DNA from: Escherichia phage AV109
DNA: 64,000 bases
Sequence record: OR352939.1
Direction: 5' to 3' (one strand)
The notes below the pieces were generated by a model that ran no database searches, was not told the DNA's origin, and worked only from the letters and a program-made list of their open reading frames with translations. Position numbers and translations under genes: made by a program. Below, in pieces: positions 2,004-50,805 of this stretch. Position 1 is the first letter of the stretch, and every line of letters begins with the position of its first letter.

Positions 2004-2903
2004 TTATTCCTCGATTACGACATCTTCATATTTAGGTATATTATATGGTGAAGAAATTAAAGCATTAAAGTAGATGAACTCACCAAGACCTGGATGAAAT
2101 ACTTCTTCAGGATTTTCGAAATATTGAATCTTCGGACGTCCTTTAAGAATTTGATAGTACTCAGTTTTAGTTGGTTTAAAAATTCGAATCAACGCTTCTT
2201 CAGGATACTTATTTCTGTCAAAGCTATTATTTGGATCGGTTATATAAAGCGGTTGACCTAATTGAATTGCGCATTCAACAACTTGTTCAAAACGATAGCA
2301 TGGGTCACTAATTCGAAATGGATGAAAAATACCATCTAGATGAATAGGAGCCAAATCACCTACAAGACGCTGCATGATGGAAGGACGTATAACTTTCTGC
2401 GTTACGATAATCTTATTACCATCTGCACCTGCGTTAACCAGCACTTCTTTTTGACGTTCATTCAACACAGTTGTTTGGATTGAACGATTAACCGACAATA
2501 TGTCGGTTTTTAAGAATTCGTCAATATAAAAACGTGGTTTATTAGGGTCTGCGGTGATATTGAAATTGAATTCTACATCAAAAGCGCCGTCATATCCAGT
2601 GATATCTGTGATTAGAAAATCACAATCATAATAAGCAATTAATGAATCAACCACAAATTCATTTTCAGACCAGAAATATTTACGAGTGTTATACGCGTTA
2701 TCTTTATACCATAATGGAACAAACTTAAATTCTGGAAAAAGACGTTCGCATTCTTTAATATCAGATGCATTACGTGGATATGTAATCACATCACCCGGAT
2801 TAGCACGGTGCAAATGAAGTTGGAAGTTGCCATCCTTAAGGATAGCATACTGTCCAGTTTCATAAGACCGCATACTCAAGATAGGTACGCGGAAAATAGC
2901 CAT
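2004..2903 (-). CDS. hypothetical protein occupying the position of T4 beta-glucosyltransferase
   Basis: 299 aa ORF; start overlaps gene 42 stop by 1 nt (TAATG); no motif I can assign. Confidence 0.55.
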   Translation of the reverse strand: MAIFRVPILSMRSYETGQYAILKDGNFQLHLHRANPGDVITYPRNASDIKECERLFPEFKFVPLWYKDNAYNTRKYFWSENEFVVDSLIAYYDCDFLITDITGYDGAFDVEFNFNITADPNKPRFYIDEFLKTDILSVNRSIQTTVLNERQKEVLVNAGADGNKIIVTQKVIRPSIMQRLVGDLAPIHLDGIFHPFRISDPCYRFEQVVECAIQLGQPLYITDPNNSFDRNKYPEEALIRIFKPTKTEYYQILKGRPKIQYFENPEEVFHPGLGEFIYFNALISSPYNIPKYEDVVIEE

Positions 2904-3619
2904 TAGTCAAGGAATCCTTTAACATAATCAAAATCACGTTCAAACACATGGGCACTTACCATGGTATGAGTATAATCACCAACTTCTACACCACATTCGT
3001 TAGCGATATAATGAAGTAATTTTCCTTGGAGATAAAAATCCAACTGCATAACAACAGCACAGTTCTGGGAACGCATATGACAGTGGGTATAAAGCTTACC
3101 GTCACGAATATAATAGGTCACTGAGTCAGTACATGGATATTCAAGCGTTTCGTCTGAATCAAGCAAAGCCTGATCAGAACTTTCTAGAATTTGGAACACA
3201 ACTCTTCGGGAGTTAGGCTTCTCTTTAAGTTCTTTTAGAAGAGCTGGTAATTGAGCCGCAATGCGAGGACCATAGAAAGTGTTGAAGTTCGCCGGCAAAA
3301 CATCTGATTTTGGTTTAGAAATAAATTTAGCGACATTAGGATATGCCTTAAACGCTTCTTCTGCGTTGGTACCACCAGAAATCATAAACTTCCAGAAGTC
3401 TTCGGCATATTCATAAGAGATGCGGTTAATACGTGGGTCGGTCATTTTGAATGATGATGGAGTGTCAACAACTACTGTCATAGACCCAATTTCATTACAA
3501 CGTCCAATACGAGAATCAGTTACGAATTCCGGGTTTTCTAAAATTTCACGATTGACTGCTTTAAATGCGGCTTGAAAATCTGCGGCTTTGATATATTTCA
3601 TTGTGTTATGTTTTCCCAT
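2903..3619 (-). CDS. 42: dCMP hydroxymethylase (thymidylate-synthase fold)
   Basis: 238 aa; CTDSVTYYIRDGKLY...HMRSQNCAVV region resembles T4 gp42 catalytic core; position between uvsX and 43. Confidence 0.85.
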   Translation of the reverse strand: MGKHNTMKYIKAADFQAAFKAVNREILENPEFVTDSRIGRCNEIGSMTVVVDTPSSFKMTDPRINRISYEYAEDFWKFMISGGTNAEEAFKAYPNVAKFISKPKSDVLPANFNTFYGPRIAAQLPALLKELKEKPNSRRVVFQILESSDQALLDSDETLEYPCTDSVTYYIRDGKLYTHCHMRSQNCAVVMQLDFYLQGKLLHYIANECGVEVGDYTHTMVSAHVFERDFDYVKGFLD

Positions 3620-7226: not shown

Positions 7227-7370
7227 CTAGTTAAAGCATTCATACTTTGCTTGTAGTCCAATCATAATCCATCCAATTACAAGTGTTGGAATCATTACCG
7301 GAGCCGTTAAGCTCCAGTAGATAGTCATGACAAGCATCAATAGTAAAAGTCCTATTGTTATTGCTTTCAT
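7227..7370 (-). CDS. small hydrophobic membrane protein (47 aa), not in ORF track
   Basis: MKAITIGLLLLMLVMTIYWSLTAPVMIPTLVIGWIMIGLQAKYECFN; ATGA overlap with SIS gene stop; SD GAGG 8 nt upstream. Confidence 0.45.
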   Translation of the reverse strand: MKAITIGLLLLMLVMTIYWSLTAPVMIPTLVIGWIMIGLQAKYECFN

Positions 7371-8002
7371 TGTTCGCCTCGTAACATGGCACCTAGTGCA
7401 CCGCCTGGATGGAACTTAAGGAAATCATTAGAGGTAAATCCACGTTCAGACGAAAGGTTGATAGCAAACGTATCGATAAGCGCTAACAACAATGTAGTGG
7501 ACATTGTCGGAGCTAAAGAGTTCTCGTCAACTTCTACCGCGATACCAGTACAGAACGTATAATCAAAAAGAGCTTCGTATTCTTGTGGAATGTCAGGGTT
7601 ACAATGTAACAGAATCTGTTTAACCTGAGGACGAATCATACGAAGATGTTTAGCAACACCTATCATTTCTTCAGTCTTACCAGAACGACTAATATGAATC
7701 AACACGTCATTAGGTGCAATAAATCCTGCGTCACCATGAGAATAATGCCCAGTGTTCAAATACATGCTAGGAATACCTAGTGAAGCAAATGTCTCGGAAG
7801 CTTTAGTTGCGATATTAGCATTCTTACCAACACCTGTAATAATTACCCGGCTTTCATAATTACTAAGTCCAGGGCGTCGAAGAGTTTCTAGAATAGCATT
7901 ATAACGAGCAGGGTTTTGACTAATTACTTTGGCCATAGCGGCCAAAGAAGAAGCTTGTTTTATGATTGCGTCAATAGCGATAGTAATAGGAGTAGTTTTC
8001 AT
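7367..8002 (-). CDS. SIS-domain sugar-phosphate isomerase, arabinose-5-phosphate isomerase (KdsD/KpsF) type without CBS domains
   Basis: 211 aa; GVGKNANIATK, SRSGKTEE, LAPTMSTT and HPGGALG motifs characteristic of API SIS domains. Confidence 0.8.
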   Translation of the reverse strand: MKTTPITIAIDAIIKQASSLAAMAKVISQNPARYNAILETLRRPGLSNYESRVIITGVGKNANIATKASETFASLGIPSMYLNTGHYSHGDAGFIAPNDVLIHISRSGKTEEMIGVAKHLRMIRPQVKQILLHCNPDIPQEYEALFDYTFCTGIAVEVDENSLAPTMSTTLLLALIDTFAINLSSERGFTSNDFLKFHPGGALGAMLRGEQ

Positions 8003-41270: not shown

Positions 41271-41351
41271 TTAGTTTCTCTTTTAGGTTGGGCCATTCCG
41301 TGGCGCATGAATTGTCCATTTCTGTATTTACCCCTCCAAGTAATTATGAAT

Positions 41352-41381
41352 ATACTATCACAATTCTAGGAGAAAGTAAAC
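41352..41381 (-). promoter_or_regulatory. early-promoter-like element
   Basis: Minus strand GTTTAC, about 18 nt, TAGTAT. Confidence 0.35.
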
Positions 41382-41383
41382 TG

Positions 41384-41686
41384 TTATTTACCTTTAATTA
41401 CTTTAGCTGCTTCGATAGCCGCTTGCTGAAGGTCATCCATAGACATACCGAATTTAGAAGCAAAGTTATCAATTTTCTTTTCGACAGCATTCAAAGGCTT
41501 GGCCTGTTTACCTTCATTAGCGCCAGGAAGAGCGAGAATACGCTCTTTGTCAATATAAAGGCTTACAAGTTTCTTACGGTCTTTATCGGACAAATCATGA
41601 AATGAATGGGCCTTTTTATTTATAGCGGCTTCTAATTTACCTGCACTCACTCGCGCTTCAGTAATAAATTCTTGATATGTTTTCAT
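41384..41686 (-). CDS. internal-protein-like, N-terminal capsid-targeting leader MKTYQEFITEA
   Basis: 100 aa; leader matches the T4 IP capsid-targeting sequence. Confidence 0.6.
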   Translation of the reverse strand: MKTYQEFITEARVSAGKLEAAINKKAHSFHDLSDKDRKKLVSLYIDKERILALPGANEGKQAKPLNAVEKKIDNFASKFGMSMDDLQQAAIEAAKVIKGK

Positions 41687-41727
41687 ATGTTTCCTTTAAA
41701 TGTAAATAGGCCTAAGTATTGGCCTTA

Positions 41728-42306
41728 TTAATTACCACGGGCTGCATTAGCAACGGCATAAGCATACTGAACATTAGCGTCCTTAAACGTACCTTTAGAG
41801 GTATCTATTTCTGCCTTAAAGCCGCCTTTAGTCATAACATCGGCAAATTCTTTACGGAAAGCCATTGCATCAAGACCTTTCCATGACGATTTATGCTTGG
41901 CAAATTCAAGACCGGCGTAGTTGACAGCCTTAGCTAATTTATTATCAATAACCCATTTACCTGCTTTAGGCACAAACTTCGGGCCTTTTTGTTTAGAGAA
42001 CAGTTTTAAATTCCAGCGACGAAGATCACTGTCGGCTTTAACAAAAGCTGCGTCTAAGTTACTAGCAACAACATCTTCAATATGAGCAAATTTAAGACCG
42101 TCAACTTCAATATTTAGATCGTTACGCCAACGAAGTCCTTCCCAAGCGAAGGCTTTAAAATCAGAAGCTTTTGTGGCTAGATATCGTTCAAGTGGAGCAG
42201 TTTTAGGGTCAAAGCCGTTTCCGCCACGATAAGTCCACTCGTCCTTATTAATGCCTTGAGCTTTTCCTGCAAAGGCCTCGGCGATAAATTCTTTATATGT
42301 TTTCAT
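41728..42306 (-). CDS. internal protein, IPIII-like size, leader MKTYKEFIAEA
   Basis: 192 aa; SD AGGAAAC; basic protein. Confidence 0.65.
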   Translation of the reverse strand: MKTYKEFIAEAFAGKAQGINKDEWTYRGGNGFDPKTAPLERYLATKASDFKAFAWEGLRWRNDLNIEVDGLKFAHIEDVVASNLDAAFVKADSDLRRWNLKLFSKQKGPKFVPKAGKWVIDNKLAKAVNYAGLEFAKHKSSWKGLDAMAFRKEFADVMTKGGFKAEIDTSKGTFKDANVQYAYAVANAARGN

Positions 42307-42327
42307 TTTTGTTTCCTTGTTTGTTTT

Positions 42328-42366
42328 GATAGAGTAATTATACCATATTAATACTTAAGCGTAAAC
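42328..42366 (-). promoter_or_regulatory. T4-type early promoter (GTTTAC / TATAAT)
   Basis: Minus strand GTTTAC, 18 nt, TATAAT, SD AGGAAAC. Confidence 0.5.
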
Positions 42367-42369
42367 AAT

Positions 42370-42630
42370 TTAAGCTTTACCGCCAGAAATAATTCCGAAG
42401 TTGTTAAAATCGTACCCAATATCGTCAACATCTACTTTAGGACTTACTACAACATAAGCAATTTCACTACGTTTTGCATAGGTGTTGATTTCTTTACCAT
42501 CGCCACCTAAGAAAGAATACCCATTACGTTTTAATGAGCCAAAGTCTTCGGCATCACCAATGAAAGCTTTAACTTTAAATTTAGGACCTTTGGCATCTGC
42601 TTCAGCGATAAATTCTTGATACATTTTCAT
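42370..42630 (-). CDS. internal-protein-like, leader MKMYQEFIAEA
   Basis: 86 aa. Confidence 0.6.
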   Translation of the reverse strand: MKMYQEFIAEADAKGPKFKVKAFIGDAEDFGSLKRNGYSFLGGDGKEINTYAKRSEIAYVVVSPKVDVDDIGYDFNNFGIISGGKA

Positions 42631-42636
42631 TTTTCC

Positions 42637-43050
42637 TTAGTAAATTGATTTACCATAGTATTTGTACCAAGTCGGACGTTGAGCAATTTTTTCATCTAAG
42701 CGTGCTTGACTTATCGCAATGGACGCTTCAGACGGGACGTAATTATTACGAAATTCTATAGGAATGTCGGAAATATCCTGGACAGTCGTGTCCTTGATTT
42801 TGAAACCACGTTTCAAGCATTCAGCGATTAGTTCGATTTGACGTAAACGTAAAAATTCGAGTTTGTCGTAAAAGAATGTTACGTGACCTGTGCCTAAGAT
42901 AAATGTTGGAGAGATTTTAAAATCCTTTACACGTTTACCGTTTTGAACATGTTTACGGACTGCACCAAATACGCGTGGTAATTCACGATACTCAGCCATA
43001 AGATGTTGGTCGGTCAGTTCAGAAACAAGTGTTAAATTGATACGGGTCAT
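42637..43050 (-). CDS. denV: endonuclease V (pyrimidine-dimer DNA glycosylase/AP lyase)
   Basis: [41 protein letters not shown] matches T4 DenV; ATG at 43050 with SD GGAGGAA (track start 43062 is TTG). Confidence 0.96.
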
Positions 43051-43077
43051 AATTTCCTCCAAGTAGTTGATGAATGT

Positions 43078-43107
43078 ATAGTATCAAAGTCCTTGGAGGA
43101 AGTAAAC
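43078..43107 (-). promoter_or_regulatory. T4-type early promoter with 10-bp SD/anti-SD inverted repeat
   Basis: Minus strand GTTTAC, TTCCTCCAAG in spacer, TACTAT, then CTTGGAGGAA SD for denV. Confidence 0.5.
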
Positions 43108-43108
43108 A

Positions 43109-43390
43109 CTATTTTTCTGAAGCGCCTGAAATATATTTTTCAAGACGTTGTTTCATTAGCGAGCCGTTCTTAGCGATTTCTTCCGGTTTATCGCACATAC
43201 GTAACAAGGCTTCAAGCTTAGCGATATCGCTGGTACGTTCAAATTTGCGAGTATCTATCTTACTAGCAAGTTCAGAAATACGTGCTAATAGACTTTCAGC
43301 TTCAACCAAAGCTGCACCTAGCTTAGTTGCAAATGTGTCAGTAGCTTCATTAAGAATAGATTCTGATAAAAATTCATTGTATGTTTTCAT
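43109..43390 (-). CDS. internal-protein-like (IPII-like position), leader [11 protein letters not shown]
   Basis: Start at internal Met of track ORF 43109..43405. Confidence 0.6.
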
Positions 43391-43875
43391 ATATACGCTT
43401 TCCAAGTTCCTGTTTTAAATGTTGAGATTACGCGTTTCGCGCGATTAGGTGTCTGACGATACCATTTAGATTGGGCTAGATTTACTGCCGCTTCGTCCCA
43501 ACGTTTCTGTTGAAGCATACGAAGAGAATTAGTAAAACCGGCGACGCCTGCTACACCCATTTGGAAGACCATATTGACCAATGCACATCGACGAACCGCA
43601 TCTAAAGAATCATATACCGGTTTAAGTTTAGCATTACCCAAGATTCCGCGAACGGCTTTATCAACGTCTTCATTAAATAGCTTTTCAGCCTCATCGAGGG
43701 TAATTGTACCGTTGCATTTACGTCCGATCATTCTGTCAAGTTCAGCTTTAGCTACGGCTAAAGACGGGTTCTTTGTTACTAAATGGCCTATGCCAATCGT
43801 CCAAAAGCCTTCAGTGTCTTTGTATAAAGTTAGTCTAAGACCTTCGTCATTACGAAGCATTTCAAATATATTCAT
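43387..43875 (-). CDS. e: lysozyme (endolysin)
   Basis: [59 protein letters not shown] matches T4 lysozyme; track ORF has 4 extra N-terminal codons. Confidence 0.97.
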
Positions 43876-43903
43876 AATACCTCCCACATTTATAGGAGGT
43901 ATT
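43876..43903 (-). promoter_or_regulatory. SD-sequestering hairpin with embedded late-promoter-like box upstream of gene e
   Basis: Minus strand AATACCTCC-TATAAATGTG-GGAGGTATT then ATG; 9-bp stem pairs the SD, loop carries TATAAATG. Confidence 0.5.
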
Positions 43904-43909
43904 TATTAC

Positions 43910-44368
43910 TTATAGGAGGGTAGTGAGCACCTTATATAATGATTTGCCCATTACATATTCCCATTGAGAAGGTTTAATTAAAGCGAATGCATCAAATTCA
44001 GGAATCTGACGTCCGTCTGGGAATGTATGATAGGAATTACAAACACTGTTTCTGAATTGCTCGTGCTCTACAGGGATGGTATATAGGAACAGATGAATAT
44101 TCTTATTATCTGAGTAATGATGTTCACCTAGGTCTTTCAGGAAGGCAGGGTCATATTGTGTAAACCCAGTTTCTTCTTCGCATTCACGAATAGCGGCTTC
44201 AATAGGAGATTCGCCAGGTTCGACATGGCCTTTAGGAATATCCCACCGATGAGCTAAAGAACCTTTAGGACGAGAACCAGTTACACGCCCCATGAATAAT
44301 TCTTTATCTTCGGTAAGGAAAATAATACCGGCTGATAGTTCTTTCACTTTATTTTTCTTACTCATCAT
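43910..44368 (-). CDS. nudE: Nudix hydrolase NudE
   Basis: 152 aa; Nudix box GHVEPGESPIEAAIRECEEETG. Confidence 0.88.
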   Translation of the reverse strand: MMSKKNKVKELSAGIIFLTEDKELFMGRVTGSRPKGSLAHRWDIPKGHVEPGESPIEAAIRECEEETGFTQYDPAFLKDLGEHHYSDNKNIHLFLYTIPVEHEQFRNSVCNSYHTFPDGRQIPEFDAFALIKPSQWEYVMGKSLYKVLTTLL

Positions 44369-44609
44369 CTCGGTCCCATGATTTGGCCATTAATTCGGAC
44401 ATAAATTCTTCAATGCGCGTTTCTTTAGATGGACTTTCACTATTAGAGACCGCAAGTTTGTAATCTGCAATAGGACAGAACATATCAAGGTCCATATTAA
44501 GGTCGTCTTTGATTTTTTCTTCTGACACATCTTTATCGTATGTGTACAGATAACTATCACATGATTCTGATTTAATGTAAATTGCTATACTCATCTCAAA
44601 TTCCTGCAT
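44358..44609 (-). CDS. hypothetical acidic protein (83 aa)
   Basis: ORF. Confidence 0.4.
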   Translation of the reverse strand: MQEFEMSIAIYIKSESCDSYLYTYDKDVSEEKIKDDLNMDLDMFCPIADYKLAVSNSESPSKETRIEEFMSELMAKSWDRDDE

Positions 44610-44827
44610 TCGGTAATAAAACGTTCAACTTCATTATTCTTGGCTTTTATCTTGTCTTTATGTTCTTGTAAACTACTTTTAATAAGATTAATAATGATAG
44701 CGACAGTGCCGCCGCCAATGATGCCACCAATAATACTTACGATAGTAGATGCTAATAAGATAGCAATAATATCAACAAAACCGAAAGAACTCACCTTAGT
44801 ACTAAAAAAACCATATAGACGGTACAA
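44591..44827 (-). CDS. small membrane protein (78 aa), non-ATG start likely
   Basis: Hydrophobic FGFVDIIAILLASTIVSIIGGIIGGGTVAIIINLI. Confidence 0.4.
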   Translation of the reverse strand: MYRLYGFFSTKVSSFGFVDIIAILLASTIVSIIGGIIGGGTVAIIINLIKSSLQEHKDKIKAKNNEVERFITECRNLR

Positions 44828-44922
44828 ATATAATCCATCCTGTTATCCATTGGCACTTATTGAAAAACTTTTCAAGCTCAGCTTGAGTTGTTCGTATTAC
44901 TTCATCGATAGGTTGATATCCG

Positions 44923-45072
44923 TTAATGTATCTGTTCACGATAATACCTGCTGACTGGTCCGATTTTAAATTCTTGGCAAATATGTTTCACTAAGTATGA
45001 TGGACATCCTGTCCAATCTACTGAATAGTATGAAATACCTTCATTGCCGTCGTCTATATTATTGTTAATCAT
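44923..45072 (-). CDS. possible small ORF (49 aa), not in ORF track
   Basis: ATG overlaps stop of upstream gene (TAATG); MINNNIDDGNEGISYYSVDWTGCPSYLVKHICQEFKIGPVSRYYREQIH. Confidence 0.35.
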   Translation of the reverse strand: MINNNIDDGNEGISYYSVDWTGCPSYLVKHICQEFKIGPVSRYYREQIH

Positions 45073-45758
45073 TACCAGCCTTCCATAGGGAATTCCAGAT
45101 AAACTTGAGCATTGACACGAATTTCATTGGTAATCTTTTTAACTCGGTCTGTATTACGAGATACACGTCCGAACCAACGCCATCCGTTACTAATTGCACG
45201 AGAACCAGTGTGCCATGTTTGCCAATCAAATTGAAGAAGAGTACGGTCTGGAGCTTCCCATTTCTCTAGTTCGCCTTTTTCGATTTTTTCGAGGACTTCT
45301 TTGTGCCACTGGCGATAGATAAGTTCGCCATCAGGAATCTGACTGAACTCTGCAGTTCCTGTTGCAAAATGAGTAGGACACACATCAGCGTTAACAAGAC
45401 CAAGAATATGTTCAGACAAATAGCGAGGATTGTCATAGTCAGGTTGTCCTGCAGTAATAAAGTGTTGACCAACTGGAATATCAGGGCGTGGAACATCGTC
45501 ATGGTGATATCCAGGAATAGCAGGGTACCAGCCAGGCATCAGCATGTGGACTCGTGAATCAAATACAACATCCGAGTCTTTCCAATCGTCAGGGAGATTT
45601 TGGATAAAGCTACGAGTAATTGGACCGCCATTATCAAAAGCAAAATTCAAATCGCAATTAAAGAACATAGGCTCGTTTTTAATCTGGCCATTTTTAATCG
45701 CATGAGCAAAACCACCTACTGCACGAGCTTGACTATTAAACACTTTAGAACTATTCAT
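45072..45758 (-). CDS. hypothetical protein (228 aa)
   Basis: ORF; 3-nt gap to upstream ORF. Confidence 0.5.
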   Translation of the reverse strand: MNSSKVFNSQARAVGGFAHAIKNGQIKNEPMFFNCDLNFAFDNGGPITRSFIQNLPDDWKDSDVVFDSRVHMLMPGWYPAIPGYHHDDVPRPDIPVGQHFITAGQPDYDNPRYLSEHILGLVNADVCPTHFATGTAEFSQIPDGELIYRQWHKEVLEKIEKGELEKWEAPDRTLLQFDWQTWHTGSRAISNGWRWFGRVSRNTDRVKKITNEIRVNAQVYLEFPMEGW

Positions 45759-45759
45759 A

Positions 45760-46065
45760 TTATTTTCCTCGGCATTCTTTAATGAAATTTTCTAGATTGG
45801 TAGATTCAATAGCTTTTTTACGAGCTTCTGCATGTTCTTCTTCGGACAATTTACATTTATAATTGACCCAGACATTATGGTCGAAACTAGTCGTGGCATA
45901 TAATAACAATGCTCCAACGAATAGCAAAAACGGTGATAAGAATACAAAACCAGGAACACCATCCATACTGTAAGCCTTTTGTAATACTGCAACAGAAAGA
46001 GCTGCGTAAAAAGGTGATGCAAATATTGTTAAAAGACCAATTCGGTTGGTTTCGCCTAATTTCAT
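45760..46065 (-). CDS. membrane protein (101 aa)
   Basis: Hydrophobic segments; SD GAGGAG. Confidence 0.5.
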   Translation of the reverse strand: MKLGETNRIGLLTIFASPFYAALSVAVLQKAYSMDGVPGFVFLSPFLLFVGALLLYATTSFDHNVWVNYKCKLSEEEHAEARKKAIESTNLENFIKECRGK

Positions 46066-46093
46066 AATATTCTCCTCATGTTTTAATAGGACT

Positions 46094-46123
46094 ACTATAA
46101 CATAATCCTATAATTATGTAAAC
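46094..46123 (-). promoter_or_regulatory. T4-type early promoter with ataggacta palindrome
   Basis: Minus strand GTTTAC, 18 nt, TATAGT. Confidence 0.5.
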
Positions 46124-46135
46124 AGTTTTGCGAAA

Positions 46136-47092
46136 TTATTTGAAAGGTTTTACCATATGAAAATTTTCTTTAAACCGTTTGATGTAATCATTTTTGCCGA
46201 GCTTATGATACATAGCCACTACTTCATAATAGTTCTCGTATGCGTACTCACGGAACCAACCGGAGGTGATGCTTGTGCAGACTTTTTCTAATGCCATCAT
46301 GAAACTGGCTTCAGGGTTAATTTTAAAGTCATTAGGAATTTGAGAACGTTCTAATGCTAGTACACATGATTCTTCATATACACCAGCCAGTTTAATCATT
46401 TCGGGTAACGATTCGAACTTCTCGCGTGAGGTCATGACTTCAGAACCGTCTTTCATATAAAATGTATACGCTGGACGGTCTGTTAGTGCAATGGCTTCAT
46501 GAATAGTATCATGGTCATATGTATAGATGTCATCTTTAAAGAACGCACTTTTAGAAGTGTCAAGAACTGGGTGAGCATAGTTCAAGGTTTCTTTCTGGCG
46601 TTTCAGCATAATTTCAGTAAGTTCATCGTTCAGTGTAACACCTTTACCACGAAGATACTGAATATGGTTCATAGTCTTTAAAAAGAATGGATTATTTTTC
46701 TTGAAACGATGAGACATCTTAATTGCAAGACCTATCTCAGGAGTTGCCCAGTAAAACCCGTTCAAACGGTCTTTAGACAAATTTTTCTTGGCGTATTTTA
46801 AAAGGTCATAAGAAGACGTGAAATCTTCAGGAGTGAGTTCACCGACTAATTCACGGACATTAGTGATTGCCGGAACAATATATGCTTCAAAATGAGTTTC
46901 GCGTCCATTATGGAAGCATTTGAAAACTTGGACATCAGGGTTATCTTGGTGAACATATACACCCATCATTTGATTTTTGAATGCATTCCAAGAACCTTGG
47001 TCCGCAATAAAGTCCCAATCGCTATTTTTGATAGCGCTAGAATCAATAAGACCATGATAGTGAAGTGCACGAGAACCAATAACTAACATCAT
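46136..47092 (-). CDS. hypothetical protein with N-terminal nucleotidyltransferase-like signature (318 aa)
   Basis: VIGSRALHYHGLIDSSAIKNSDWDFI fits the GS...DxD pattern; weak. Confidence 0.4.
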   Translation of the reverse strand: MMLVIGSRALHYHGLIDSSAIKNSDWDFIADQGSWNAFKNQMMGVYVHQDNPDVQVFKCFHNGRETHFEAYIVPAITNVRELVGELTPEDFTSSYDLLKYAKKNLSKDRLNGFYWATPEIGLAIKMSHRFKKNNPFFLKTMNHIQYLRGKGVTLNDELTEIMLKRQKETLNYAHPVLDTSKSAFFKDDIYTYDHDTIHEAIALTDRPAYTFYMKDGSEVMTSREKFESLPEMIKLAGVYEESCVLALERSQIPNDFKINPEASFMMALEKVCTSITSGWFREYAYENYYEVVAMYHKLGKNDYIKRFKENFHMVKPFK

Positions 47093-47120
47093 AATATTTT
47101 CCTCGGATTAATTCATTAAC

Positions 47121-47360
47121 TTAAATTTCACGACATGCGATATTATATTCGTCCCAGAGGTCATCGTGTGAAGCCTCTACCAATGGAACGATTGTACCGT
47201 TTATGTCTTCATTATAAGGGCAAATTGTACAGTGCGCATCTTCGAATCGGATGCCTTTGTGTTCAGATTTTTTATAACGCATATCGAATATCTTTGCAAA
47301 CTTTTCACGAGTAATGGTTTTAGCAACCACTTTGGTTCCGATACTTTCGTAATAAATCAT
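47121..47360 (-). CDS. hypothetical protein (about 79 aa)
   Basis: Second ATG with SD GGAG is the likely start; track ORF starts at 47372. Confidence 0.4.
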   Translation of the reverse strand: MIYYESIGTKVVAKTITREKFAKIFDMRYKKSEHKGIRFEDAHCTICPYNEDINGTIVPLVEASHDDLWDEYNIACREI

Positions 47361-47388
47361 TGTGGACTCCATTTGTTTTGATAGGACT

Positions 47389-47418
47389 ACTGTAACATAG
47401 CCCTATCTTGTTGTAAAC
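47389..47418 (-). promoter_or_regulatory. T4-type early promoter
   Basis: Minus strand GTTTAC, 18 nt, TACAGT; ataggactactgtaacatagccctat core. Confidence 0.45.
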
Positions 47419-47422
47419 TGTT

Positions 47423-47620
47423 TTAGCAAGAATAACTAGATGATACCCAGCCTTGAACAGTGATACTATTGTGGGATAATGAGATCGCGTCCTGGAGATT
47501 CAGACCTGCGTTATCTTCAATCCATAATGTAACTTCTTCGCGTTCTTCTGTTGCAATTTGGAACAGGTTTTCCAGAGCAGCTACTGCCGTACGTACAGCA
47601 CAATCTAATTCACGAGACAT
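47423..47620 (-). CDS. small protein, member 1 of a tandem paralog trio with C-terminal GxWVxSSxxC tail
   Basis: 65 aa ending VQGWVSSSYSC. Confidence 0.5.
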   Translation of the reverse strand: MSRELDCAVRTAVAALENLFQIATEEREEVTLWIEDNAGLNLQDAISLSHNSITVQGWVSSSYSC

Positions 47621-47629
47621 ATGGTTTCC

Positions 47630-47902
47630 TTAGCAAGTGTGAGAAGATGCGACCCAACCGCCATCTTCAAGGCTCAGGTTGTAGTCGTATTGGTAAACGT
47701 CAGCCCATTCAGCCTGGCCGTTTTTTGTACAACGTTCAAGATCGGCTTTAAGATGTCCGGGTGAATGATAGGTTCCACCCATACCATAAGCTGGATACAA
47801 GTCAAATGTTGTGTTTTGTTTATCAGCAATTTCTTTGGCAGCCTCAATAGCTGCATAGATTTTTGCTACAGCTTCAGCCAGTTCGGTTTGTTCTTTAGAC
47901 AT
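47630..47902 (-). CDS. small protein, member 2 of the tandem trio
   Basis: 90 aa ending DGGWVASSHTC; stop followed by AAGGAAACC SD of next gene. Confidence 0.5.
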   Translation of the reverse strand: MSKEQTELAEAVAKIYAAIEAAKEIADKQNTTFDLYPAYGMGGTYHSPGHLKADLERCTKNGQAEWADVYQYDYNLSLEDGGWVASSHTC

Positions 47903-47911
47903 AACTATTCC

Positions 47912-48223
47912 TTAGCACAACGCAGAAGACGAAACCCAAGCACCATCTTTCTCTTCTACCCTTGATTTATCCCAAGAAATACTAATATATGATTCGCCAT
48001 CAATAGAAGTCGCCGGGTTTTTCTCTACTGTAAGACCTTCACTTTCCAGCCATTCAATAGTATTTGCGCATAAATCTGAAGAACACCTCATCGGAAACCG
48101 GCAAGATTTTTCACCTTTAGATGCTGCATCGTACATCTTTTCCAAAATACGCTTTTGCACGTTTTTAAAAATAGTTTCAGCAGATTCTTCAGATTTTTTA
48201 TTCAGTTCAGTGTAAAGACTCAT
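47912..48223 (-). CDS. small protein, member 3 of the tandem trio
   Basis: 103 aa ending DGAWVSSSALC; SD AGAGGAAAA. Confidence 0.5.
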   Translation of the reverse strand: MSLYTELNKKSEESAETIFKNVQKRILEKMYDAASKGEKSCRFPMRCSSDLCANTIEWLESEGLTVEKNPATSIDGESYISISWDKSRVEEKDGAWVSSSALC

Positions 48224-48251
48224 AACATTTTCCTCTATGGTTGATAAGTCT

Positions 48252-48280
48252 ATAGTATCATGTCCTTAGAAGAAGTAAAC
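48252..48280 (-). promoter_or_regulatory. T4-type early promoter
   Basis: Minus strand GTTTAC, 17 nt, TACTAT, SD AGAGGAAAA, ATG 48223. Confidence 0.5.
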
Positions 48281-48312
48281 ATCTTTATGAAATATTTTTA
48301 TGCCCTAGATAC

Positions 48313-48340
48313 CAAAAGGCCCCAACCATAAGGAAGGGGC
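48313..48340 (-). terminator. rho-independent terminator, copy 3
   Basis: ggccccaacc-ataa-ggaaggggc hairpin with minus-strand U-run, downstream of the 48347 gene. Confidence 0.5.
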
Positions 48341-48346
48341 ATTCTA

Positions 48347-48811
48347 TTATTTAATTTGTTTAGCAGACCAGATACGGTCTTTAATAAGTTTTTGGATATC
48401 TTCAACATACTCAAGGCTATGAGCGTGAGGATTATCTTTGAAGCTATGTGCTCGTGCCAGTTTCTGTCCTTCTGTTTTGATTACTAAAAGCTCTTTAAGA
48501 ATTGCTTCATACTTAGAAATAATTCCTTTGGCGATATTTTTTTCTTGAGCTGCTTTAGGGTCCACTTTTGGCGCAGGTGCTTTACCTGTAGCTTTCTGGA
48601 ACAATTCACCTGATGCAGCTAGGCTTTTAAAAACTCGGCTAACAGTATTAGCATTAGTAAAACCTTCGGCTTTAAAATCTCTAATAAAACGGAAACGTTC
48701 TTCATCAGAGGCGTCTTTGTAAGAATATTTACCTGCTTGAATTGCTGCAATCGCAGCGGCTTTTACATCTGAACTAGATTGTTCAGTCAAAAATTCAGCG
48801 TATGATTTCAT
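48347..48811 (-). CDS. internal-protein-like, leader MKSYAEFLTEQ
   Basis: 154 aa; Ala/Lys-rich. Confidence 0.55.
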   Translation of the reverse strand: MKSYAEFLTEQSSSDVKAAAIAAIQAGKYSYKDASDEERFRFIRDFKAEGFTNANTVSRVFKSLAASGELFQKATGKAPAPKVDPKAAQEKNIAKGIISKYEAILKELLVIKTEGQKLARAHSFKDNPHAHSLEYVEDIQKLIKDRIWSAKQIK

Positions 48812-48854
48812 GTTGCTTTTCCTAAGTTAATTAACTTATCTATTTATTATTATG

Positions 48855-48883
48855 CCAAAAAGCCCCGACCTTTCGGAAGGGGC
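48855..48883 (-). terminator. rho-independent terminator, copy 4, downstream of the tRNA region
   Basis: gccccgacc-tttc-ggaaggggc hairpin with minus-strand U-run. Confidence 0.55.
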
Positions 48884-48894
48884 TAAGCCTTGCG

Positions 48895-49010
48895 GCAACC
48901 TTGTCGGGGTTCCACCTGCTAAGGCAAGTGTTTGTACGAAACGCCGGGATTCGAACCAAGATAAAGGAGTTAACAGCTCCCAGTAATAACCTTTATACGA
49001 TGCACCATTT
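48895..49010 (-). other. tRNA-like remnant or small stable RNA candidate adjacent to the tRNA
   Basis: Minus strand has canonical T-loop GGTTCGAATCC and an anticodon-like stem-loop GGGAG-CTGTTAA-CTCCT, but I could not fold a clean acceptor/D/T cloverleaf. Confidence 0.25.
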
Positions 49011-49013
49011 GTT

Positions 49014-49088
49014 TGGTGGCCCTGGCTGGTTTCGATCCAGCTACCTATCAGTTATGAGCTGACAGCTCTCCCATTGAGCTACAGGGCC
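49014..49088 (-). tRNA. tRNA with CAT anticodon (Met or lysidine-type Ile)
   Basis: Hand-folded cloverleaf: 7-bp acceptor GGCCCTG/CAGGGCC, D-stem GCTC/GAGC, anticodon stem GTCAG/CTGAT with loop CTCATAA, T-stem GCTGG/CCAGC, encoded CCA. Confidence 0.85.
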
Positions 49089-49184
49089 TAAATAACTTTC
49101 TATTATGAAAGGCACTTGAGGGAGCACCTTTGGTAATAGAGGGTAGATTAATAATAACACATAATTCTTAAAGCAAATTACGTT

Positions 49185-49475
49185 TTACCGTACCATATTA
49201 ATGTAGTTATATTCAATGCAACGTAATTTCAAAGGGTTCTTGAAAATATCATATTCAAGAGGGCCTTTTTCTGTTTCAATAAAGAAATCAAAGTTAACTG
49301 TGTTAAATTTAACGTCTTCACAGAGTAATTTAACTTGTGAAGATGAACGGTCGATATAAACCTTTTCAACCTCAAAGATAGTCAGAATACCGTAGTCATT
49401 AACCAGTGCTTTAGCTGCACGTTGGTCGCTTTCATATCCGTTCTCAATGGACGATACTTTAGCATAAAGAATCAT
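49185..49475 (-). CDS. hypothetical protein (96 aa)
   Basis: ORF. Confidence 0.45.
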   Translation of the reverse strand: MILYAKVSSIENGYESDQRAAKALVNDYGILTIFEVEKVYIDRSSSQVKLLCEDVKFNTVNFDFFIETEKGPLEYDIFKNPLKLRCIEYNYINMVR

Positions 49476-49834
49476 GAATGTTCCACCATTTCAAAGGTAT
49501 GAGCATCAACAATATGATACCAGTCAAAATTTTCTTCCGCGTTTTTATAAATTTCGCGAAGAGCTTCAACAGTTTTTCCTGTAGCAACAAGATCGTCAAT
49601 ACCACCAAGAGGATAACAGTAATAACCAGCAAACAGAAGGAAATTAATAGTTTCTGTAGGTTCTGGATGCAGAACACCGTTATCATCTACCACTTCAAAG
49701 AAAGTGTAAGAAGGAGTACAAGTTTTAATCCAAGCCCATGCTTGGGCTGCTGAATCAAATGGTCTGCGTATCAAACGACAATCAGGGTCTTTAGAAGGAT
49801 TTGCGTCAAAATCTGCATATACATGATATTTCAT
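49472..49834 (-). CDS. hypothetical protein (120 aa)
   Basis: ORF; 4-nt overlap downstream. Confidence 0.5.
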   Translation of the reverse strand: MKYHVYADFDANPSKDPDCRLIRRPFDSAAQAWAWIKTCTPSYTFFEVVDDNGVLHPEPTETINFLLFAGYYCYPLGGIDDLVATGKTVEALREIYKNAEENFDWYHIVDAHTFEMVEHS

Positions 49835-50020
49835 TTACTCACCTTTTGCAATTTTATCCATAACGATAGCGATTAAGCCGATTAGAAATGCTACTACCAA
49901 TGAGATAGAATTTTCTGTTGTTGTCAGTAGTCCACAAATGAATCCTACAAACATCGAAAAACTAAAAGCCATTGAAGCAATTACTACAGCAACATTACGA
50001 ATCAGTTCAGCGCGTTTCAT
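49835..50020 (-). CDS. small membrane protein (about 61 aa)
   Basis: Internal Met with SD GGAG; hydrophobic VAVVIASMAFSFSMFVGFICGLL. Confidence 0.45.
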   Translation of the reverse strand: MKRAELIRNVAVVIASMAFSFSMFVGFICGLLTTTENSISLVVAFLIGLIAIVMDKIAKGE

Positions 50021-50057
50021 TTTATTTCTCCATTTACTCATTTGTTTTGATAGGACT

Positions 50058-50087
50058 ACTATAACATATCCCTATAGGCTTGTATAC
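50058..50087 (-). promoter_or_regulatory. early promoter variant (GTATAC -35, TATAGT -10)
   Basis: ataggactactataacatatccctat core. Confidence 0.45.
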
Positions 50088-50089
50088 CT

Positions 50090-50353
50090 TTATTTCAAAT
50101 ATATTGCGTATTTTTTATAGCCACCAGGCTCGTGTCGAAGACCTTTATCATTCGCAAAACGTTGAATGTTATTGAACTGATTTTCATCAAGTTCGGATGT
50201 GTCAAATACGAAAAAGTTTCGTTTGTTACCAAGCGTGATATGCGGAGTTAAGTCAATATTATACAAATTAAGAATATCAGCAATAACCTGATTGACCGCT
50301 TTGTTAATTTTCACACCAGATGATTCTGAGATGAATTCGTTGAAAGTTTTCAT
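50090..50353 (-). CDS. internal-protein-like, leader MKTFNEFISES
   Basis: Start at internal Met of track ORF 50090..50365. Confidence 0.55.
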   Translation of the reverse strand: MKTFNEFISESSGVKINKAVNQVIADILNLYNIDLTPHITLGNKRNFFVFDTSELDENQFNNIQRFANDKGLRHEPGGYKKYAIYLK

Positions 50354-50385
50354 TTTAGGTTCCATTTGGTTGTTTTGATAGGACT

Positions 50386-50415
50386 ACTATAACATAGTCC
50401 TATCGTGTTGTAAAT
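50386..50415 (-). promoter_or_regulatory. early promoter (ATTTAC -35, TATAGT -10) with ataggacta palindrome
   Basis: ataggactactataacatagtcctat core. Confidence 0.45.
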
Positions 50416-50726
50416 TATTTTATGCCTTTAGAAGAAATGGTATTTTGGCGTTTAACCCCTGTTTGTGAAAAATCGTGGTTATCGATTTGGTCGACTCGCA
50501 TAACACCAAATGCAGATTTAATTTTAGCCTTTGAACCTTTTTTGATACTAATTATCATATAAGTATCATTTTTCTTATATTCGAAATTTGTTACTTCAAC
50601 GCCTTGATTAGAAATTGACTTAATAATAGCATTAGCGTATTCATCATCTAACGGACCGGTGGTGTTAATAATAAAATTTTTATCGGCTTTAGTAGCTTCA
50701 GCGATAAACTCTTGATAAGTTTTCAT
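50415..50726 (-). CDS. internal protein (IPI-like position), leader MKTYQEFIAEA
   Basis: 103 aa; located just before 57B as ipI is in T4. Confidence 0.6.
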   Translation of the reverse strand: MKTYQEFIAEATKADKNFIINTTGPLDDEYANAIIKSISNQGVEVTNFEYKKNDTYMIISIKKGSKAKIKSAFGVMRVDQIDNHDFSQTGVKRQNTISSKGIK

Positions 50727-50763
50727 TTGTTTTTTCCGTTTGGTTTGTGATTTGATATGATGA

Positions 50764-50792
50764 TAGTATCACACCATCATCCTTATGTAAAC
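50764..50792 (-). promoter_or_regulatory. T4-type early promoter
   Basis: Minus strand GTTTAC, about 18 nt, TACTAT. Confidence 0.45.
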
Positions 50793-50805
50793 TGTTTTGT
50801 GAAAA

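Follow-up and report, generated by a model that had tools for sequence, protein, structure and literature searches.

Within a 64,000-nucleotide (nt) stretch of the Escherichia phage AV109 genome (sequence record OR352939.1; this whole stretch is called the window), seven open reading frames (ORFs) between positions 41384 and 50726 encode small proteins that begin with the leader peptide of the phage T4 internal proteins (Ips) or with close variants of it. We label them W1 to W7 by rising coordinate, and all lie on the minus strand (Table 1). An earlier note on this DNA had claimed seven ORFs with a T4-type leader, and every peptide that it quoted is found verbatim at the N-terminus of a minus-strand ORF. 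The positions that it gave pick out the right ORFs, yet they are stop-codon ends and not leader sites, which are at the high-coordinate ends (41686, 42306, 42630, 43390, 48811, 50353 and 50726). In T4, such a leader is the capsid targeting sequence (CTS) of the internal proteins, reportedly described by Mullaney and Black in 1996. Positions 41300-50800 of the window are 100% identical to Escherichia phage AV114 (OR352944.1; Mosigvirus, Tevenvirinae). Over window positions 1-39826 the identity is 99.75% (96 mismatches, 3 gaps), so the window is not strictly AV114.

Table 1. Leader-bearing ORFs and associated features in the window (aa, amino acids; a slash marks a predicted gp21 cut)
Feature	Position	Strand	Length	Remarks
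W1, assigned as IpII orthologue	41384..41686	-	100 aa	leader MKTYQEFITE/A
W2, assigned as IpIII orthologue	41728..42306	-	192 aa	leader MKTYKEFIAE/A
Early-type promoter upstream of W2	42337..42365	-		TTTACG, 17 nt, TGnTATAAT; 10/12 matches, extended -10
W3, predicted internal head protein, unnamed	42370..42630	-	86 aa	leader MKMYQEFIAE/A
W4, assigned to Ip5 family	43109..43390	-	93 aa	leader ends /SILNE/A; predicted second gp21 site at Glu15
Repeat, downstream copy	48309..48340	-		32-nt imperfect direct repeat; hairpin and T-run on coding strand
W5, RB32ORF132c/bas37_0244 family	48347..48811	-	154 aa	leader MKSYAEFLTE/Q
Repeat, upstream copy	48852..48883	-		terminator-like hairpin between tRNA and W5
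W6, assigned as Ip9	50090..50353	-	87 aa	leader MKTFNEFISE/S; alternative ATG at 50365 adds MEPK
Early-type promoter upstream of W6	50386..50414	-		TTTACA, 17 nt, TGnTATAGT; 10/12 matches; inverted repeat across -10 box
W7, assigned as Ip7	50415..50726	-	103 aa	leader MKTYQEFIAE/A
Early-type promoter upstream of W7	50763..50791	-		TTTACA, 17 nt, TGnTACTAT; inverted repeat across -10 box

The leader pattern MK[TSM][YF].EF[IL].E occurs seven times in the window, against an analytic expectation of 2.9e-5, and not once across 200 Markov-1 random sequences. A position-specific scoring matrix (PSSM) built from the window's own leaders gives W1-W7 scores of 34-43 bits and, at a reporting threshold of 8 bits, no other site in the 64 kb. 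In the remaining 104 kb of the AV114 genome the top additional score is 14.7, a weak and probably fortuitous match. The "at least seven" leaders of the earlier note can thus be sharpened to exactly seven, as judged from the window and from the rest of the near-identical AV114 genome. Its count of three for T4 agrees with the literature and with a control scan of T4 60-78 kb, where the same matrix gives 43.3 for ipII and ipIII and 15.8 for ipI. A 31-codon ORF in the AV114 region 49900-96100 (L005, minus-strand start 30527) begins MKKLKEFLNEKPMF..., scores 12.7 and has an L-N-E motif; it lies inside an annotated small gene, and its likeness to a leader is probably due to chance. For the seven leaders themselves, an origin in chance similarities or mis-called ORFs has the shortness of the motif in its favor and nothing else. 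Seven are observed where 3e-5 are expected, all of them at coding-strand ORF starts with ribosome-binding sites, and all seven ORFs are conserved in hundreds of phage genomes, so that this explanation, whose probability we consider negligible, is already refuted.

Mutagenesis of the T4 IpIII leader ascribed targeting to residues 4 and 7 and processing to residues 8 and 10; the gp21 protease cleaves after the Glu of L/I-x-E, and in T4 the ten residues alone are enough for foreign proteins to be packaged (reviewed in PMC9026906). All seven leaders keep these positions: residue 4 is Tyr or Phe, residue 7 is Phe, residue 8 is Ile or Leu, and residue 10 is Glu. The residue after the predicted cut (P1') is Ala in four proteins, Ser in two and Gln in W5. 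Matching leader residues are often coded differently (ACA/ACT, TAT/TAC, GAA/GAG, ATT/ATC, GCN), which argues that the leader is selected as a peptide. The partners expected for such a leader are encoded in the AV114 genome, outside the window: gp21 (Peptidase_S77, E 2.9e-107), gp22 (T4_CASP, E 1.5e-89) and gp67 (GP67, E 3e-20). Six of the seven proteins match PHROG families named internal head or internal virion protein, the exception being W5. Pfam and NCBIfam sequence searches returned nothing meaningful, nor did a sequence search of the PDB with W1, W2, W5, W6 and W7.

The genes W1 to W4 are grouped around denV and the lysozyme gene e, a known plastic ip locus. From their similarities, W1 and W2 are assigned as orthologues of T4 IpII and IpIII, and W4 to the Ip5 family. 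The mature part of W1 is 93% identical to T4 IpII and matches the internal virion protein family phrog_7857 (E 4.5e-55), and W2 is 94% identical to T4 IpIII and matches phrog_5341 (E 1.4e-117); members of their clusters bear the names ipII or internal protein II in the first case and IpIII in the second. W4 is 54% identical to RB51 Ip5 over the mature part (E 6e-18) and 48% identical to bas37_0261; it matches the internal head protein family phrog_3499 (E 2e-46), and its ATG overlaps the stop codon of e (ATGA; gap -4 nt). W3, with denV 6 nt upstream, matches the internal head protein family phrog_2667 (E 4e-21) and is found in 217 phage records, several of which carry the label "internal head protein"; the records seen give it no Ip number. 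A paralogous relationship between W3 and W7 is unsupported: both match phrog_2667, but a profile comparison aligns chiefly their leaders (probability 86%, 42 columns).

Lying between 57B and trna.4, W6 and W7 fill the classical ipI locus; their matches assign them as Ip9 and Ip7, respectively. W6 belongs to the internal head protein family phrog_7673 (E 4.8e-49), is 76% identical to "Ip9 [Enterobacteria phage RB15]" and is annotated as Ip9 in mogra, VR7 and IME08. W7 matches phrog_2667 (E 2e-38), and its homologues are named "Ip7 protein" or "internal head protein 7" in T2, RB32, WG01 and AS6. An AlphaFold2 (AF2) model of W7 (mean predicted local distance difference test score, pLDDT, 75.5) has a ferredoxin/ACT-like core and a disordered basic tail rich in Lys and Arg. 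The "ip7 protein" of Escherichia phage OLB35 (P0120) is a chimera of Ip7 N-terminal and Ip9 C-terminal parts; it shows that recombination occurs within the ip7/ip9 locus, and apparently arose by deletion between the adjacent genes.

Copies of the Ip9 cargo domain that have no leader occur in metagenomic phage contigs and in a Kagunavirus siphophage (UTEC10, WWY66496.1; 72 aa, 57% identity), and a Kuttervirus protein of 756 aa ends in the same domain. The proteins without a leader begin almost exactly at the predicted start of mature W6. This fits a tag-plus-cargo design, in which a portable CTS has been added to pre-existing accessory domains.

Public records thus name homologues of these proteins Ip5-like, Ip7, Ip9 or internal head protein. 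Together with the assigned IpII and IpIII orthologues, the six PHROG matches, the preserved CTS positions and the presence of gp21 and gp22 in AV114, they bear out the reading of the earlier note that these are T4-type, CTS-bearing internal proteins. Its remark that the mature domains differ from one another holds as well: with the leaders removed, no pair among the seven is similar at E<0.01. The closest approach, W6 with W7 (28% over 42 aa, E 0.012 in a ten-sequence database), was judged non-significant.

W5 stands between the tRNA and e-cluster genes, away from both known ip loci. It matches phrog_2280 ("unknown function", E 2.4e-53) over its full length, the alignment beginning at profile position 1. 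Its family is represented in 511 phage records, about 400 of them at 60-80% identity and including Tequatrovirus phages such as RB32 and RB51. The leader and its L-x-E are kept in all full-length family members, and L-x-E is kept in distant homologues of Yersinia and Klebsiella phages whose leaders vary. Leader-bearing genes are found at the same site in RB51, Bas37, Yersinia phage fHe-Yen9-01 and a Klebsiella phage, as tandem paralogues in Bas37 (bas37_0243 and bas37_0244) and in fHe-Yen9-01 (gp153 and gp154). The leaders at this site vary (MLEYSEFLKE..., MKFKEFLAE...), yet all end in L-x-E, and the proteins have a conserved N-domain and swapped C-domains. The AF2 model of W5 (pLDDT 74.8) shows a disordered leader, a three-helix N-domain (11-72), a linker rich in Pro, Ala and Lys (PAK-rich) and a C-terminal helical hairpin. 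In the HIDEN-SEQ study of Bas37, the W5 orthologue bas37_0244 was non-essential on K-12 (29 of 34 TA sites disrupted), with no fitness change in the single host comparison retrieved (preprint 10.1101/2025.11.20.689424); such dispensability fits the status of an accessory gene.

Several observations were made around W5. The two copies of the repeat that flank it are 81% identical, with a terminator-like site at 48878..48863; the pair lends W5 a cassette-like look, and the RB51 record remarks on a "34 bp imperfect direct repeat" around its own W5 orthologue. The neighbor of the orthologue in Bas37, bas37_0243 (L013, MZ501089, 11029-11592), is a CTS-bearing gene of 187 aa (MKTYAEFLTEAAK...) with no counterpart in the window. 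It was scored "Essential" by HIDEN-SEQ (1 of 48 TA sites disrupted), which is unexpected in an internal protein. Just downstream of W5 are three small ORFs in tandem (47423-47620, 47630-47902 and 47912-48223, minus strand), which are scarcely similar overall; all begin with MS and end with an invariant W-V-[S/A]-S-S-x-x-C. On the other side, the AV114 record places a tRNA-Asn at about 48936-49007 beside tRNA-Met. ARAGORN and Rfam (gathering threshold) find just the tRNA-Met (49014/49017-49088), and the annotated tRNA-Asn may be degenerate or mis-called.

Early-type promoters (TTTAC-17-TGnTAxxxT) were found upstream of W2, W6 and W7. That of W2 has the same type and position as those upstream of T4 ipI, ipII and ipIII, and the promoter region of W7 aligns with the upstream regions of T4 ipI and the Bas37 ip. 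These sequences belong to a 5' module common to ip genes of this phage (window 50727-50810, 50354-50430 and 42307-42385), T4 (L003) and Bas37 (L013), in the order AATAATTTCACAAA, GTTTAC (the -35 box), an inverted repeat that spans the -10 box, TCAAAACA, the ribosome-binding site and ATGAAAAC; the module runs on into the first codons. In W2, W6 and W7 the inverted repeat over the -10 box measures 6-11 bp; the sequences of the arms diverge and their pairing is kept, while the hairpin registers differ among the eight sequences. The whole is suggestive of the PeSL shuffling cassettes of T4-like phages, in which an early promoter (TTTACW-N17-TAYWAT) and a stem-loop flank variable ORFs in hyperplastic regions (PMC4122927).

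Since the module aligned in this phage, T4 and Bas37 extends into the coding sequence and may be PeSL-like, the common N-terminus might partly be a by-product of a recombining mobile 5' cassette made of promoter, stem-loop, ribosome-binding site and first codons. W5, and W6 if its upstream ATG is used, could then be cytoplasmic early proteins. The repeat bracketing W5, the Gln at its P1' position and its want of an Ip annotation in the records checked would all suit this explanation, as would the upstream in-frame ATG of W6 and the existence of the Ip9 cargo as a leaderless gene in other phages. We nevertheless find it quite improbable. W5 has no such upstream module, yet its leader is kept in every full-length member of its family, and L-x-E even in the Yersinia and Klebsiella phage homologues; the synonymous differences at conserved leader residues point to selection on the peptide rather than to DNA copying; and in T4 a foreign protein needs no more than the ten residues to be packaged (PMC9026906).

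With the leader read as a peptide tag, the W5 family and the Ip9 domain lead us to a proposal in two parts, which we offer tentatively, as a serious possibility rather than the expected outcome. T-even phages may have a third, unrecognised ip locus, situated between the tRNA cluster and the e-gene block and occupied by the widespread two-domain W5 family of CTS proteins; and the CTS may be a capture tag. On this view the Ip9 domain, for example, was at first an ordinary early accessory gene with no leader, and the gain of 10-11 codons made of it an effector that is pre-loaded and injected.

At least 80% of the ip region is covered by 59 records, and mogra holds the same seven genes. The set is therefore an expansion by comparison with T4, but it is neither new nor unusual in its clade, being common to many Mosigvirus isolates. 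Within the regions examined in each relative, T4 has IPI, IPII and IPIII, with no counterpart of W3-W7 in the syntenic 18 kb; RB51 has Ip4, Ip5 and a W5-like gene; and Bas37 has bas37_0260, an Ip5-like gene, a W5-like gene and bas37_0243. RB69 is reported to retain an IPI almost identical to that of T4 (PMC6024577), and the window holds no IPI orthologue. The T4 proteins resemble those described here in their leader, their L/I-x-E site for gp21, their neighborhoods (57B-trna.4 and denV/e) and the arrangement of their early-type promoters. In contrast to T4, the IPI locus here holds Ip7 and Ip9; the gene order is e-W4-denV-W3-IpIII-IpII rather than e-ipIII-ipII-denV; four further types of cargo are present, and W5 occupies a third site; and arabinosyl-hydroxymethylcytosine (arabinosyl-hmC) is expected in the DNA instead of glucosyl-hmC.

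For T-even phages, "at least 10" Ips recognised by their signal sequence have been reported (Repoila 1994, as cited in PMC12373910). The polymorphic Ip4-Ip13 of T2, T6 and the RB phages (same source, as cited there) are, as here, leader-defined families of unrelated cargoes at plastic loci, and W4 belongs with Ip5, W6 with Ip9 (RB15) and W7 with Ip7 (T2, RB32). W3 differs from them in having no number, and the W5 family in not being called an Ip in the RB51 and RB32 records; an earlier naming in Repoila (1994) is possible. Bas37_0260 has the same leader and, as here, an ipI locus with two adjacent ip genes, and it shows a CTS cargo acting on a type IV system other than GmrSD; unlike this leader, the rest of the protein has no similarity to W1-W7. 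A more distant parallel is found in the giant phages phiKZ and SPN3US, whose ejection proteins enter the head, lose their propeptide through cleavage after Glu by a prohead protease related to gp21, and are then ejected into the host (PMC9026906). These systems are set apart, by their description, by longer non-homologous propeptides, an S/A-x-E motif and far larger cargoes.

The functional reading of the earlier note already has support in the literature. Ip1, Ip2 and Ip3 inhibit three different GmrSD type IV enzymes, one each, and do not cross-protect (Silas et al., 2025, PMC12373910): T4 IpII inhibits GmrSD-ECOR21 and IpIII inhibits GmrSD-ECOR17 (PMC12373910; Srikant et al., 2022). Because IpIII expressed in the host without its CTS still rescues infection (Srikant et al., 2022), it acts in the cytoplasm. 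Bas37_0260, a CTS protein at the Bas37 ipI locus that is unrelated to Ip1-3, inhibits McrBC (10.1101/2025.11.20.689424), and so the CTS is used for several anti-restriction cargoes. The T4 Ips are dispensable (PMC9026906). Transfer of the bas37_0260 function to W1-W7 was ruled out, the leader alone being common to them (Bas37, MZ501089). At 2902-3618 and 7367-8002 of locus L010 (window coordinates about 1 nt higher, in the part that is 99.75% identical), the AV114 record has a putative dCMP hydroxymethylase gene of thymidylate-synthase fold and a gene for a SIS-domain protein with the annotation D-arabinose-5-phosphate isomerase. These genes fit an RB69-type arabinosyl-hmC modification, and Mosigvirus DNA is known to carry arabinosyl-hmC and to be attacked by type IV/GmrSD enzymes (PMC6024577; PMC8594841).

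From their orthology, W1 and W2 are probable inhibitors of ECOR21-type and ECOR17-type GmrSD, respectively. The "diversified injected anti-defence arsenal" of the earlier note is in essence the established, already published interpretation (Silas et al., 2025; Srikant et al., 2022; 10.1101/2025.11.20.689424); an anti-defence role has been shown only for the T4 orthologues of W1 and W2, and for W3-W7 we infer both the packaging and the anti-defence roles. Overall, we hold with good confidence that W1-W7 are T4-type internal proteins, in which a portable 10-residue N-terminal tag is joined to unrelated small cargoes that are injected, W1 and W2 being GmrSD inhibitors and W3-W7 most likely inhibitors of other defences.

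A model of their action can be proposed by comparison with T4. Transcription would start from the early-type promoters, or proceed by read-through or coupling with neighboring genes. The leader MK-T-Y/F-x-E-F-I/L-x-E would then bind the gp22-based scaffolding core, so that the protein enters the prohead before the shell closes. Cleavage by gp21 after Glu10 of L/I-x-E (and also after Glu15 in W4) would release a cargo of 8-20 kDa inside the head, and at infection this cargo would exit with the DNA and be active before any phage gene is expressed. W1 and W2 would likely inhibit, stoichiometrically, two distinct type IV enzymes of the GmrSD family, which attack DNA carrying sugar-modified hmC; W3-W7 would most likely also be first-response inhibitors of host defences, but differ in specificity. 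In this scheme, everything from scaffold binding to ejection, as well as the GmrSD targets, comes from the T4 literature, while the present analysis supplies the leaders, the conserved CTS positions, the orthology and, in AV114, the genes for gp21, gp22 and gp67.

Several points weigh against this interpretation. A literature search on this phage, its close relatives and Mosigvirus found no virion proteome or N-terminal data, and the gp21 and gp22 evidence and the whole-genome leader count rest on AV114 as a proxy. The start codons of W4 and W6 are ambiguous, with an in-frame TTG five codons upstream in W4 and an in-frame ATG four codons upstream in W6; in both, the MKT... start is the one annotated in the AV114 record and in most relatives. 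None of the seven genes has a perfect late promoter (TATAAATA) directly upstream, an absence that is uninformative because T4 ipI, ipII and ipIII show the same pattern. W5 has Gln rather than Ala or Ser at P1', and its family is without an Ip label in every record checked: 40 of 40 records among the matches listed are "hypothetical" or unannotated, as are all 20 named members of its 90% cluster ("hypothetical" or "uncharacterized"). The curated RB51 record names Ip4 and Ip5 and leaves the W5 orthologue as RB32ORF132c, which is not called an Ip in the RB32 record either. A fold search with the W5 model found no match in the PDB (best E 1.2) and, in BFVD, only its own family. For W7, the fold gave only generic ferredoxin/ACT-like matches, the best at E 2e-3; IPI* was absent from the 50 listed, and no function was drawn from either model. 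Finally, W3-W7 have no similarity past the leader to Ip1, Ip2, Ip3 or bas37_0260, and in tests of ip4-10 against additional GmrSD variants no inhibition was reproducible (PMC12373910, supplement).

This last result also counts in favor of another reading, in which the proteins are packaged but some of them serve the virion, by neutralising or organising the DNA or by aiding scaffold or head assembly, their diversity then reflecting weak constraint and not an arms race. A strongly basic isoelectric point (pI 9.0-9.7) is predicted for the mature forms of five of the seven, W7 has its disordered Lys/Arg-rich tail, and mutants in T4 IpIII assemble heads more slowly, reach about 40% of the normal burst and form more polyheads (PMC9026906). 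We consider such a role unlikely as the explanation of the set: a specific GmrSD target is known for each of T4 Ip1, Ip2 and Ip3, while IpIII works from the cytoplasm without its CTS; W3 and W4 are near neutral (pI 6.3-6.4); repertoires differ sharply among close relatives, as is typical of accessory genes under diversifying pressure; and the W5 orthologue is dispensable.

What is new here is confined to W5, as an unrecognised member of the CTS family together with its locus, and to the observation on Ip9 that suggests tag capture. The principle of injected anti-restriction proteins is established, and the present set is of value as a catalogue and for finding targets, not as a new concept. 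Since injected proteins precede phage gene expression, they decide whether a therapeutic T-even phage establishes itself in wild strains with modification-dependent nucleases. The phage described here was isolated on extended-spectrum beta-lactamase (ESBL) E. coli and has seven such proteins, two of which (IpII and IpIII) have targets assigned by orthology. The five orphan cargoes, above all W5, are concrete candidates for inhibiting first-response defences, of type IV or other kinds, directed at arabinosyl-hmC DNA. If the leader is indeed a capture tag, leaderless homologues could be used to find the functions of Ips, and a census of leaders would expose many unannotated injected effectors.

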